Shown here piece by piece: positions 5,911-11,054 of a DNA stretch of 64,000 nucleotides (positions are counted from its first letter, which is position 1; each line of letters starts with the position of its first letter). The translations under genes and the position numbers were made by a program. Location of the stretch: NCBI GenBank assembly GCA_964638515.1, contig CAZWZL010000005.1:8809-72808 (forward strand), read 5' to 3'. Source of the DNA: an uncultured Phycisphaeraceae bacterium. GTDB taxonomy: Bacteria; Planctomycetota; Phycisphaerae; Phycisphaerales; UBA1924. The notes beneath the pieces are model-generated. The model was not told where the DNA came from and did no database searches. It saw only the letters and a program-made list of their open reading frames with translations.

Positions 5911-6909
5911 TCAGCGGCGTGGCTCGAGCGGCGTTGGCTCTGGTTCTTCGTGCGGCGCCCCGACCTGGCCTTGGATGGCCGCGACTCGCTCCGATACTTC
6001 GCGTTCGGCGGATCGGCGTTTGTGGGCGCGGCGGGCGAGATCGACGCTATACACGGCGAGCCCGGCCCAGATGAAGGCGAAGGTGATGGCGCGGCTCAGG
6101 GTGAGCGTTTCGCCGTAGACGAGCACCGCGAGCAGGAACTGGCCGGAGGGTGCGATGTACTGGAGGAAGCCGAGTGTGGTGAAGCGGATGCGTCGCGCCC
6201 CTTCCGTGAACCACCAGAGCGGGACGATGGTGACGACTCCGGCGAGCGGAAGGAGGATGTTGTCGGCGGGCGATCCGGGGAAGCGGCCGGCGCCGGAGAT
6301 CGCGGCCCACACGGCGTAGGCGATGGCGAGCGGGAGGAGTTGCCAGGTTTCGACGGCGAGGCCGGTGAGGGCGTCGACGGGCGCGCGTTTGCGGAGCAGG
6401 CCGTAGAACCCGAAGGAGATGGCGAGACCGAGCGAGAGCCAGGGGAGGGAGCCGAAGCCGATGACGAACCACGCGACGCCGAGCGAGGCGAGGGCGAGTC
6501 CGATGATTTGTGCGCGGTTCAGGCGCTCTTTCAGGAGCACCACGGCGAGCGCGACGTTGACGAGGGGGTTGAGGTAGTAGCCGAGTGAGGCCTCGAGCAT
6601 GCGGCTGCTCGCGACCGCGTAGATGAACAGCAGCCAGTTGAAAGCGATGAGGCAGGTGGAGACGGCGAGGACTCGGCGGGCCTTGGGATCGCGGATGGCG
6701 CGCCACGGCTCGCGGGTGCGTCGTTTGAGTGCGAGCAGGCCGCCCAAGAGCAGTGCGCCCCAGATGACACGGTGCGCGAGGACTTCGACGGCGGCGACGT
6801 GGGCGACGGCTTTGAAGTAGATCGGAGCGAGCGCCCATGCGAGATAGGCGGCGACGGCCCAGGCGATTCCGGCGCCGGGGTCGGCGTTCGTTGCTTTGTG
6901 CGCGCTCAT
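5911..6909 (-). CDS. rarD: EamA/RarD-family (DMT superfamily) membrane transporter
   Basis: C-terminal 332 aa of track ORF 5911..7773, starting [33 protein letters not shown]. About ten hydrophobic helices. The ATG at 6909 overlaps the lysK stop (ATGA). Confidence 0.85.
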   Translation of the reverse strand: MSAHKATNADPGAGIAWAVAAYLAWALAPIYFKAVAHVAAVEVLAHRVIWGALLLGGLLALKRRTREPWRAIRDPKARRVLAVSTCLIAFNWLLFIYAVASSRMLEASLGYYLNPLVNVALAVVLLKERLNRAQIIGLALASLGVAWFVIGFGSLPWLSLGLAISFGFYGLLRKRAPVDALTGLAVETWQLLPLAIAYAVWAAISGAGRFPGSPADNILLPLAGVVTIVPLWWFTEGARRIRFTTLGFLQYIAPSGQFLLAVLVYGETLTLSRAITFAFIWAGLAVYSVDLARRAHKRRSAEREVSERVAAIQGQVGAPHEEPEPTPLEPRR

Positions 6910-8066
6910 GGGGGGCCGGATGATATTCCGGCGGCGGGCGCGGGGAGAGGCGCGTCGGGGAGTTGGTCGAAGAGGTGTCGGATGGCGTGCTCGAGGACGG
7001 AGACGGAGCGGAGGTATTCGTCGAGCGAGAGGCGCTCGACGGGGGTGTGATCGAGCGCGCTGTCGCCGGGACCGTACGCCACGATGGGGCATTGCCACAC
7101 GGGCGCGACGACGTTCATGTCGGCGGTGCCGGTCTTGACCTTGAGGGATGGCGAGGCGCCGGCGGCGCGGATGGCGTTGACGAACGCGCGGGCCGCGGGG
7201 CTGGTTCGTGGCTCGACGTGCGCGTGTTCGCGACCTCGGAAGGAGACGTCGGCGTCGAGCGACGCGGCGCGGGCGAGGATGACGCTTTCGACGGCGCCGG
7301 CCTCGAGCCCGGGCGGGAGTCGGAAGCCGATGGTCATGTGGGCGGTTTCGATGAGTCCGTCGGAGGACGTTCGGATTTCGCGGAGCGCGGCCTGGAGTTG
7401 GGTGAAGACGCCGTTGCGATCGCGGTTGAATTCGTCGGCAAACGTCTTGGCCGCGATCCAGATGTCGGCGGCCATCTCGCCTGCCGTGGGCATCGGACCG
7501 GCGGGGTGCGCGCAGGGGACTTCGACGCGCACGTCGGCGAGGAGGCGTCCCTTGTAGCCGATGGTGACGCAATCCCACGCGGACGGTTCGCCGATGACGC
7601 AGGCGCGAGGGCGGAACTGGGTCGCGGCGAATCGGGCGCCCTTGGATGTGGCGACTTCCTCTTCCACGGCGCCGATGGCAATGAGTCGTGCGCCTGGGGG
7701 AGGGGTGATGCGCGAGGCCGCGGTGACGAACGCGGCGAGCGGGCCCTTGGCGTCCACGGCGCCGCGTCCCCACAATTCTCCTCGCTCGACGCGGACGGGG
7801 ATGTCTCCGGGCACGGTGTCGATGTGGCCGAGCAGCACGATGTCGCGGGTTCCGTCGCCTTCGCCGAGAATGCCTACGGCGTTGCCGGCTTCGTCGATGG
7901 ACGCGCGCATGCCGAGCGAAGCCATCTGCGCCACGAGAAACTCGACTGCGGCGCGTTCGTGTCGGGACACGCTGGGAACCGAGATCATGTCCTGCAAGAG
8001 CCGCACGCTGCCGTCGTCGGAGAGCGCTCGGACATGGACGGGCGACGATGGTGCGCGGACGCTCAT
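6906..8066 (-). CDS. lysK: M20-family deacylase, [LysW]-lysine/ornithine hydrolase (LysK / ArgE-like)
   Basis: 386 aa. Contains [10 protein letters not shown] and [14 protein letters not shown]. Last biosynthetic gene of the lysWXYZ operon. ATGA overlap with the lysZ stop at 8063-8066. Confidence 0.85.
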
Positions 8067-8878
8067 TCGAACACCGTGCCTTGTCCTGCCAGGGCGTTGC
8101 GGATGGGGGTGGCGATTCGACCGTCGGCGAAGATGATGCGGCGCACGCCGGCGTTCATGGCCTCCTCGGCGCCCAGGACCTTCTTCTTCATGCGGCCCTG
8201 CGCGGATTCGGCTGCCCTGGGGATGTCCGCGCGGGGGATCCGGGGGATGAGCGTGGATTCGTCGGGGAAGTTTCGGAGCAGTCCCGGGGCGCTGGTGAGG
8301 TAGAGGATGGTGGATGCGCGGAGCGCGGCGGCGGTCATGGCGGCGGCGCGGTCTGCATCGACATTGATGGCTTCGCCTTCCATGGACACTGCCGGGGGCG
8401 TGAGCACGGGGGTGATGCCGGTGGCCAGGAGATGGTCGAGCAGTTCGACGTTGACGCGATCGACCGTGCCGGTGTAGTCATCGCGGACGACGACGGTTCG
8501 GCCCTCGATGACGGCGCGGATGGCGGCTTTTCGCGTGCCCTGCCAGAGTCGCGCGTCGAGCCCGCTCAGGCCTGCGGCGTTGATGCCGAGGCGTTGGAGC
8601 CGCTCGACGACGCCCTTGTTGACGCTTCCGCAATAGACCATCTCGAAGAGTTCGAGGGTCTTGCGGTCGGTGCGTCTTGAGACGTGACCGGAGGGGGAGG
8701 TGAGGAAGTTGGGCGGGTGACCGAGCGCTGCGGAGACTTCGTTGAGACGGGCCGAGCCGCCGTGCACGAGCACGACGCGCCACGCGCCCTCCTTGATGAG
8801 TTCGGCGACGTCGGCGCAGATGGCGTCGAGGTTGATGCCTTCGCCGCCGCCGGCTTTGATGACAAGCGTTTCGCGCAT
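8063..8878 (-). CDS. lysZ: Amino-acid kinase family, [LysW]-aminoadipate/glutamate kinase (LysZ)
   Basis: Real part of track ORF 8063..9280, starting at ATG 8878: [12 protein letters not shown]...VLVHGGS...[10 protein letters not shown] (acetylglutamate-kinase fold). 271 aa, shorter than the ArgB encoded at 21195. Confidence 0.85.
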
Positions 8879-8892
8879 GTTGCTCCGGGGAA

Positions 8893-9921: not shown

Positions 9922-10823
9922 GCGCGGGCTCCCGCCACTGGCCTGGGCTCCACGAGCGTGCTCACGGGCGCCCGGCCTCGCCGGCCGACGCTGAGGACGT
10001 AGTCGGCGATCTTGCCCGGGATGTTGACGCCGGTGGGGTCGATGGAGTTCTTGTATTCCATGGTGTAGTTGACTTCGTTGACGAGCAGCCCGCGCGTGGG
10101 GTCTTCGAGCAGGTCGATGGCGACGACGCCCCCGCCGACGGCGGCGGCGGCGGCGCGGGAGATGCGGTCGAGGTCGTCGGACACCGTGACCGCGCCGGTC
10201 TTGCCGCCGCGCGCGGTGTTGGTGATCCAGTGCTCGCTGCGGCGTTCGATGGCGCAGATGGTTTCGTCGCCGACGACGAAGGTGCGGATGTCCCGGCCGG
10301 CCTTCTCGATGTATTCCTGGATATAGAAGACGGAATGGTGGTATGAGCCGAGCGTGGCCTTGTGCTCGAGGAGCGCCTCCGCGGCGTCGCGGTCGTTCAC
10401 CTTGGCCAGGAGTCTGCCCCAAGAGCCGACGGCGGGCTTGAGCACGACGGGGTAGCCCATTTCTTCGATGGCTTCGAGCGCGGCTTCGGGCGTGACGGCC
10501 ACGCGCATGCGCGGGGTGGGCACATGGTGGCGGACAAGTTCGAGGGAGGTGTTGAGCTTGCTCCCGCAGACGTCGGCCACGCGCAGCGGGTTGACGCAGG
10601 GCAGGCCCCAGGATTCGAGCACGCGGATCGCGGCGTCGGCCTGGGAGTGCGAGATGCACCGTTCGACGACGACATCGGCGTCGGCCCAGCGGCCCGGGTG
10701 ATGGGGATCGAACCGGAGCTCGCGGACGTCGACCATTTCGAGGTTGACGTTGCGGGCGGCGAGTTCATCAGCGAGGAGCTTTTCCTCGACACGGATTCGT
10801 GAGTACAGCATGGCCACGCGCAA
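9918..10823 (-). CDS. lysX: ATP-grasp ligase LysX/ArgX (RimK family); attaches the substrate to the LysW C-terminal Glu
   Basis: 301 aa. [45 protein letters not shown] and [15 protein letters not shown] closely match the Thermus LysX pattern as I recall it. Confidence 0.9.
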
Positions 10824-10868
10824 TGGGGATTCTCCGTTGGAGGTGGTGCGTGATCGGATGCGCGTGGA

Positions 10869-11054
10869 TTACTCGCCCCAGTCTTCCTTGACGGGGGGCG
10901 CGAGTTCGATGCGGAGGGGGACCAGCGAGACGACTTCGAGCTCGGCGCCGCACTCGGGGCACGGGATGACTTCGCCGGCGAGCGTGCGCGGCTTGATCTC
11001 GAGTTCGCCCGCGCACTCCACGCAGAGGACGGATTGGCTTGCGGTCTGTTCCAT
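10869..11054 (-). CDS. lysW: Amino-group carrier protein LysW (zinc-ribbon, acidic C-terminal EDWGE tail)
   Basis: 61 aa from ATG 11054, with SD AAGGAG upstream: MEQTASQSVLCVECAGELEIKPRTLAGEVIPCPECGAELEVVSLVPLRIELAPPVKEDWGE. CxxC...CxxC plus terminal EDWGE is the LysW signature. The track extends it artificially to 11174. Confidence 0.9.
   Translation of the reverse strand: MEQTASQSVLCVECAGELEIKPRTLAGEVIPCPECGAELEVVSLVPLRIELAPPVKEDWGE

Follow-up and report, generated by a model that had tools for sequence, protein, structure and literature searches.

The LysW pathway of Thermus thermophilus (LysW, LysX, LysZ, LysY, LysJ and LysK), which makes lysine from alpha-aminoadipate, is the closest described counterpart of the system analyzed here. 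The Thermus lysine cluster is reportedly also controlled by a leader peptide with lysine codons. The same carrier-protein chemistry and enzyme families operate in the bifunctional LysW/LysX-ArgX systems of Sulfolobus and Thermococcus kodakarensis, and LysW-, LysX-, LysZ-, LysY- and LysK-like proteins are found as well in the amino-group carrier protein (AmCP) clusters of actinomycete secondary metabolism. In this study, we analyzed 64,000 nucleotides of an uncultured Phycisphaeraceae bacterium (positions 8809-72808 of contig C5 in genome G000; hereafter, the window) and found a lysW-X-Y-Z-K-rarD operon that has five homologous proteins in common with the Thermus pathway. The core of the finding is an ordinary member of the known Thermus-type LysW system beside a classical arginine pathway, and we consider it likely that the operon carries the later half of the aminoadipate pathway to lysine, in the form known from Thermus. 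In full-text literature searches, neither LysW nor the aminoadipate pathway turned up in any paper on Planctomycetota. The window DNA comes from a bioreactor metagenome, and its genome bin comprises 2.6 Mb in 61 contigs, with 68% G+C and an estimated completeness of 95.6%.

A sequence-only reading of the window had proposed this operon at positions 5911-11054, and all six genes were found there on the minus strand, with family scores and motifs in agreement (Table 1). LysW has the two CxxC pairs that the reading had described (CVEC at residue 11 and CPEC at residue 32) and the C-terminal EDWGE, the features that mark a LysW/AmCP protein, and its identity to the LysW proteins of related loci ranges from 46 to 95%. 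Among solved structures, LysY matches Thermus LysY (2ozp) best, at 394 bits, while ArgC chains reach at most 187 bits. The genes are chained as the reading had them, by a GTGA overlap between lysX and lysY and by ATGA overlaps between lysZ and lysK and between lysK and rarD, and from the last of these, rarD appears to be translationally coupled to lysK. We compared ten Phycisphaerales loci, namely the window and nine others (L019, L020, L112-L116, L032 and L036). The order lysW-X-Y-Z-K is repeated in all nine others, so the arrangement is not due to chance. The terminal EamA/RarD gene, in turn, is joined to the operon in a single genus, that of the window, L019 and L020. In a sediment metatranscriptome, short contigs match segments of lysX, lysY and lysK, as well as the lysK/rarD junction (6728-7080), with full identity; these would fit a single transcript for the operon, but are only weakly indicative of it because DNA carry-over is possible.

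Table 1. Positions of the lysine operon, its leader, and neighboring genes in the window
Feature	Position	Strand	Evidence
Class-I aminotransferase (YbdL/KAT-like), convergent on rarD	4678-5907	+	PRK07777, 504 bits vs cut-off 553; methionine aminotransferase, 407 vs 420
rarD, EamA-family transporter	5911-6909	-	TIGR00688, 208 bits, cut-off 130
lysK, [LysW]-lysine hydrolase (M20)	6906-8066	-	NF003367, 428 bits, cut-off 363
lysZ, [LysW]-aminoadipate kinase	8063-8878	-	NF010659, 390 bits, cut-off 223
lysY, [LysW]-aminoadipyl-6-phosphate reductase	8893-9921	-	argC-family model, 356 bits; GCNAT at residue 147
lysX, ATP-grasp (RimK-type) LysW--alpha-aminoadipate ligase	9918-10823	-	TIGR02144, 335.9 bits, cut-off 275.6
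lysW, amino-group carrier protein, zinc ribbon, 61 aa	10869-11054	-	TIGR01206, 53.5 bits, cut-off 53.2
Intrinsic terminator between leader ORF and lysW	11089-11125	-	10-bp GC-rich stem, then GUGGUUUUU; terminator scan and fold
Leader open reading frame (ORF), 45 codons	11161-11298	-	MSTSRQHDPARTAMVGGIAAPAAAQVKKAGKELKGASTPVGLVCP and stop; four Lys codons, all AAA, at 11197-11220
Sigma-70-like promoter (putative), upstream of leader	11308-11335	-	TTGACA-16-GAGAAT; consensus scan
Classical arg operon, argR-argC-argB-argF-argG-argH(NAGS fusion)-argJ	15633-23619	-	NCBIfam equivalogs
argJ	about 15633-16820	-	equivalog above cut-off
argH fused to C-terminal N-acetyltransferase (NAGS-like) domain	16844-18724	-	equivalog above cut-off; PRK12308, 749 bits
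argG	18730-19950	-	equivalog above cut-off
argF	20030-21046	-	equivalog above cut-off
argB	about 21195-22031	-	equivalog above cut-off
argC	22115-23083	-	GCYPT motif; equivalog above cut-off
argR	23161-23619	-	121 bits, cut-off 130

The sequence-only reading had held that the substrate of the operon could not be deduced from sequence and had left aminoadipate, glutamate and a nonproteinogenic amino acid open. Our results point instead to alpha-aminoadipate as the substrate and to lysine as the product, with control by lysine, a call that we make with fair confidence because of the ranking of solved LysX relatives, the LysX substrate motif, a conserved leader with lysine codons, and the mutual exclusion of LysX and LysA among related genomes. 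In the pathway that we infer, LysX would use ATP to attach aminoadipate, through its amino group, to the gamma-carboxyl of the glutamate at the LysW C-terminus (...EDWGE). LysZ would then phosphorylate the free 6-carboxyl, and LysY would reduce it to the semialdehyde, which an aminotransferase encoded outside the operon would convert to LysW-gamma-lysine; LysK would release lysine. Expression would probably be governed by lysine supply, since a leader with four rare AAA codons followed by a terminator suggests attenuation. In this Phycisphaerales family, the LysW module would thus take the place of the diaminopimelate route to lysine.

The evidence from LysX comes from both overall similarity and individual residues. 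As the sequence-only reading had noted, the protein is Thermus-like; its best match among solved relatives is Thermus LysX (3vpd; 287 bits, 52.5% identity), ahead of T. kodakarensis LysX (211 bits) and ArgX (161 bits). Substrate choice in this family has been assigned to five residues, which read F-I-T-NS in the aminoadipate-specific Thermus LysX, I-Y-V-GF in ArgX, and Y-I-T-NA in the bifunctional enzyme (Shi et al. 2025, PMC12998189). We carried out the comparison of pocket residues that the earlier reading had suggested, taking the positions (F182-I192-T203-N258-S259 in Thermus numbering) from an alignment. The window LysX reads F-I-T-NS, and neither the ArgX nor the bifunctional motif occurs in it. 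The F-I-T-NS motif is shared by all ten Phycisphaerales copies and is found in 85 of the 88 aligned sequences. T. kodakarensis LysX, read in the same way as a control, gave Y-I-T-NA, matching the publication.

The motif bears directly on two readings in which LysW carries glutamate. One is a bifunctional module of the Thermococcus or Sulfolobus type, in which LysW would carry both aminoadipate and glutamate and supply lysine as well as ornithine. Such breadth has some biochemical footing: with LysW-Glu derivatives, Thermus LysZ retains about 60% and Thermus LysY 15-20% of the native activity (PMC12998189), and glutamate is always available, while genes for forming aminoadipate were not found. 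We nevertheless regard a bifunctional module as unlikely. The LysX motif is strictly of the aminoadipate type, glutamate loading by wild-type Thermus LysX, which has the same motif, is poorer by a factor of at least 10 (PMC12998189), and the window, unlike Sulfolobus and T. kodakarensis, has a LysX with neither of the other motifs and no ArgX paralogue. In addition, ornithine synthesis would not require LysW, given the full set of ArgJ, ArgB and ArgC, with ArgR, at a distance of 4.6 kb. The second reading is an ArgW/ArgX-type pathway from glutamate to ornithine only, for example for the cell wall or polyamines, with lysine taken up from outside. It would account for a genome in which aminoadipate cannot be made by known routes from the genes found, and haloarchaea use the AmCP system for arginine only (PMC10433800). 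Nevertheless, the window LysX lacks the ArgX motif, no solved relative is further from it than ArgX, and the operon proteins pass lysine-specific NCBIfam equivalogs; an ornithine-only pathway is highly improbable.

The distribution of the operon agrees with a role in lysine synthesis from aminoadipate. We surveyed 21 genomes of the order Phycisphaerales, counting LysX and LysA above model cut-offs. LysX was found in eight genomes, all in one family (six genera), among them a genome assembled as a single contig of 3.9 Mb (G008). LysA was found in none of these eight but in 8 of the 13 LysX-negative genomes, an exclusivity for which we calculated a one-sided Fisher p of ~0.006, with no correction for shared ancestry; G007 has only a weak LysA-like frame. 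This complementarity is a further point against an ornithine-only role. It also bears on the idea, raised by the earlier reading, of an actinomycete-type AmCP cluster that makes a nonproteinogenic amino acid. An operon-terminal transporter without an assigned substrate and a precursor that was not identified would suit such a cluster. Unlike the actinomycete clusters, however, the ten loci encode neither tailoring nor extension enzymes within the operon or next to it, all five proteins match lysine models of primary metabolism, and the operon is a core feature across six genera with the regulatory and phyletic pattern of primary metabolism. We find a secondary-metabolite cluster scarcely credible.

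The nearest LysX proteins are those of uncultured Phycisphaeraceae/Phycisphaerales bins (88% and 85% identity), whose loci show full synteny from argF through the lysine operon to the class-I aminotransferase. The closest outside the family, at 57-71% identity and with the same motif, belong to LysW clusters (by pipeline annotation) in Chloroflexota, Ignavibacteriota and Binatia metagenome bins. A quick LysX tree split the Phycisphaerales copies, with the window genus among Anaerolineae and other family members with Thermus, and we considered multiple horizontal transfers into the family. This idea was set aside, since constraining the Phycisphaerales copies to monophyly improved the likelihood (p-AU 0.74), and a single origin is therefore not rejected.

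The region upstream of lysW suggests how the operon is regulated. It has a TTGACA-16-GAGAAT element that would act as the promoter; the consensus scan found one such site against 0.2 expected from shuffled sequences, and the element is conserved in L019 and L020. Downstream lies a short ORF whose peptide includes the stretch ...VKKAGKELKG..., with four nonconsecutive AAA codons within eight. AAA is rare in this genome, accounting for 0.28% of codons overall and for 10.4% of those for lysine, and only two 8-codon windows with at least four AAA codons occur in the six frames of the 2.6 Mb, one of them in the leader. The sole other hit falls in an A-rich intergenic stretch that contains no ORF, and we dropped it as a sign of a second lysine-regulated operon. 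Each of the nine other loci likewise has a short ORF with four AAA codons ahead of lysW. Between them, these loci represent seven of the eight LysX-positive genomes (six genera) and two further Phycisphaerales bins, and a GC hairpin with a T-run stands at the equivalent place in eight of the nine, L114 being unclear. An Rfam scan of positions 4000-26000 at E values up to 1 gave no match, hence no lysine riboswitch. The leader and terminator are thus a likely lysine-sensing leader-peptide attenuator, with the layout of the trp, his and leu attenuators, in which a short ORF with codons for the end product is followed by an intrinsic terminator and the first structural gene. That the leader codons are those of lysine and not arginine is another point against both a bifunctional and an ornithine-only module.

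ARAGORN found a single tRNA-Lys gene in all contigs, with the anticodon UUU (C49:13468-13541). AAG accounts for 90% of the lysine codons, yet no tRNA-Lys with the anticodon CUU was found by ARAGORN; the CUU isoacceptor may be absent from the draft.

Several results weigh against reading the operon as a lysine-regulated module that turns aminoadipate into lysine. Minimum-free-energy folds of the leader show no clear antiterminator, both the stalled and the released states retaining the terminator, and the leader differs in this from the trp, his and leu attenuators, as it does in its nonconsecutive rare codons; for this reason, attenuation is proposed here as a mechanism from the layout of the region. 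The genome also differs from Thermus in that homocitrate synthase, homoaconitase, homoisocitrate dehydrogenase and a dedicated LysJ were not found in it. Its sole gene of the HMGL family (PF00682) is an HMG-CoA lyase adjoining an enoyl-CoA hydratase, and its sole gene of the aconitase family is AcnA, split across two contig ends, which leaves no homoaconitase LysT/LysU. Both Iso_dh genes pass isocitrate dehydrogenase equivalogs. No genes of the LeuA/homocitrate synthase or LeuC/HacA type occur in any of the eight LysX-positive genomes, including the single-contig one, although both types are present in three genomes of other families of the same order. At the level of the aminotransferase, the genome has no dedicated LysJ or ArgD, and its one good class-III enzyme sits in a catabolic-looking cluster with an aldehyde dehydrogenase and a CN-hydrolase (C23:13797-17623). 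Lastly, a genuine DapF (TIGR00652, 242 bits vs cut-off 115; C6:75157-76635), fused to a GNAT domain, implies that some diaminopimelate metabolism exists.

The simplest account of the missing enzymes would be that the front half of an ordinary complete pathway (homocitrate synthase, LysT/LysU and homoisocitrate dehydrogenase), together with lysJ, exists but escaped detection through assembly gaps or binning loss. The bin is fragmented and short of complete, and because homocitrate synthase usually lies near lysX in other phyla, one lost contig could hide several genes. Against this, the same absences recur in all eight LysX-positive genomes. The 10-kb flanks contain neither a homocitrate synthase gene nor lysJ in any of the ten Phycisphaerales loci, whereas of 75 loci in other phyla, the Chloroflexota, Ignavibacteriota and Binatia clusters included, 54 have a homocitrate synthase-like gene at most 12 kb from lysX, and 44 have lysJ there. 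Furthermore, tblastn of this genome with the LeuA-type protein of a relative matched only the HMG-CoA lyase. An assembly gap is unlikely to explain the missing aminoadipate-forming genes, given that the homocitrate synthase and homoaconitase gaps are family-wide and that no such gene lies near the ten loci, and an ordinary complete pathway that was merely overlooked is very improbable.

The route through diaminopimelate is also incomplete. The LysA model matches only SpeA (biosynthetic arginine decarboxylase) in this genome, the dihydrodipicolinate synthase family (PF00701) has no member, and DapA and DapB gave no match by phmmer or tblastn with E. coli probes validated against PDB 1dhp and 1arz. 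PROSITE-like patterns for DapB and dihydrodipicolinate synthase had no match either. A complete diaminopimelate pathway in a genome without aminoadipate-forming enzymes had been named in the sequence-only reading as an argument against a lysine role. The second part of that combination is what we found, but the first is not, with DapA, DapB and LysA missing too. The dapF-GNAT gene stands beside genes for an M20 hydrolase, a divergent class-III aminotransferase of 501 aa, and an AstA-like N-succinyltransferase (C6:71036-76635), a cluster that may serve diaminopimelate salvage or catabolism or some other pathway.

We also looked for substitutes for the missing front-half enzymes. A citrate-synthase-type replacement for homocitrate synthase was not supported in this genome, as phmmer gave just two genes with the citrate synthase fold, one gltA-like and one 2-methylcitrate synthase-like, and no truncated citryl-CoA-lyase-like gene (PrpD and HD genes were not searched for). 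One Iso_dh gene (C5:3260-4504, 4.3 kb upstream of the window start) encodes a classic NADP-dependent isocitrate dehydrogenase. The other (C24:4602-6044) encodes a PRK09222-type protein of 480 aa whose N-terminal part resembles homoisocitrate dehydrogenases (AksF2 model, 333 bits, below cut-off) and which may have a side activity on homoisocitrate. The 2-methylcitrate synthase-like gene adjoins a methylisocitrate lyase gene (C27:14977-17003), a pair that suggests a methylcitrate cycle for propionyl-CoA; an AcnD of the aconitase family was not found in the genome. LeuB-type genes are absent from this genome, both Iso_dh genes scoring as isocitrate dehydrogenases, and every genome of the family has an HMGL match the size of HMG-CoA lyase. 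With LeuA and LeuC types lacking family-wide, the family looks auxotrophic for leucine yet able to degrade it.

The aminotransferase of the pathway has to be sought elsewhere in the genome. That neither the lysine nor the arginine operon contains a class-III enzyme (LysJ/ArgD) had been pointed out from the sequence, and the gene annotation bears this out, argD being absent from the arginine operon. In the genome-wide search that the reading had called for, the nearest candidate was the class-III enzyme of contig C23 (C23:15262-16623). It is GabT-like (TIGR00700, 486 bits, cut-off 507), scores 399 bits against E. coli GabT versus 191 against Thermus LysJ, falls below the argD model (309 bits, cut-off 410), and is 36% identical to a LysJ set between lysZ and lysK in another planctomycete bin. 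The cluster around it looks like one for the catabolism of gamma-aminobutyrate (GABA)/polyamines or 5-aminovalerate. The GabT-like protein would be the best candidate for both the LysJ and the ArgD role. In E. coli, GabT can reportedly back up ArgD. The class-I aminotransferase that converges on rarD is a possible but unproven 2-oxoadipate/aminoadipate aminotransferase. As a LysN linked to LysX it was rejected: its orthologues (56-65% identity) occur in almost all relatives, with or without LysX, so there is no co-occurrence signal.

The flanks of the operon in five other genera have no conserved neighbor that hints at precursor supply. One tentative view of how the family obtains aminoadipate, which we put forward as a possibility and hold to be rather doubtful, is that lysine in this family depends either on an undescribed, nonhomologous route to aminoadipate or 2-oxoadipate or on salvage of these compounds from the community, with RarD as a lysine-controlled importer in the window genus. 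RarD is a candidate importer of aminoadipate in this genus. For a transporter that is expressed at low lysine, import of lysine or of a precursor would be a more fitting role than lysine export.

The classical arginine operon that the earlier reading had placed close by is indeed present, 4.6 kb from the lysW start to the argJ stop, and the two operons are separated by LemA, HtpX and FeoB genes. Carrier-protein and N-acetyl systems therefore coexist, the ArgJ/ArgB/ArgC set (with GCYPT in ArgC) standing beside the LysW operon, and we propose that a separate ArgR-linked acetyl pathway makes ornithine and arginine. In the ArgH fusion, acetyltransferase models match residues 466-604, and argJ is part of the same operon. 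The synteny of the arginine and lysine operons is kept in L019 and L020. The view that this coexistence is unusual did not hold up, as T. thermophilus likewise has a LysW lysine pathway beside a canonical arginine pathway (PMC12998189). What sets the window apart from Thermus, besides the missing enzymes, is that five lys genes form one compact operon, with RarD attached in the genus, in a mesophilic planctomycete. The GC skew of the plus strand declines steadily across the window, from +0.32 on the left to about -0.2 on the right, crossing zero near 16-20 kb, and cumulative skew peaks at ~16-18 kb; this may be a replication-related switch.

Collectively, these results add a lineage of mesophilic planctomycetes to the hosts of the LysW lysine pathway, and the LysX motif together with a codon-based leader offers a means of inferring the substrate of LysW operons from sequence. 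With no dedicated omega-aminotransferase for either the arginine or the lysine pathway, the organism is a natural case for aminotransferase sharing. The consistent family-wide absence of a known aminoadipate source, of the diaminopimelate route and of a dedicated LysJ heightens interest in the operon, as it makes it a stripped-down variant in which precursor supply is a testable question. A regulated module from aminoadipate to lysine is retained in eight genomes from six genera, including the single-contig genome, without homocitrate synthase or homoaconitase genes and without a diaminopimelate route to lysine. If this orphan half-pathway is not an artefact, either a novel synthesis of aminoadipate exists or aminoadipate is cross-fed in bioreactor and freshwater communities. 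Should salvage be true, the family would have a lysine "half-pathway" lifestyle that has so far not been described.

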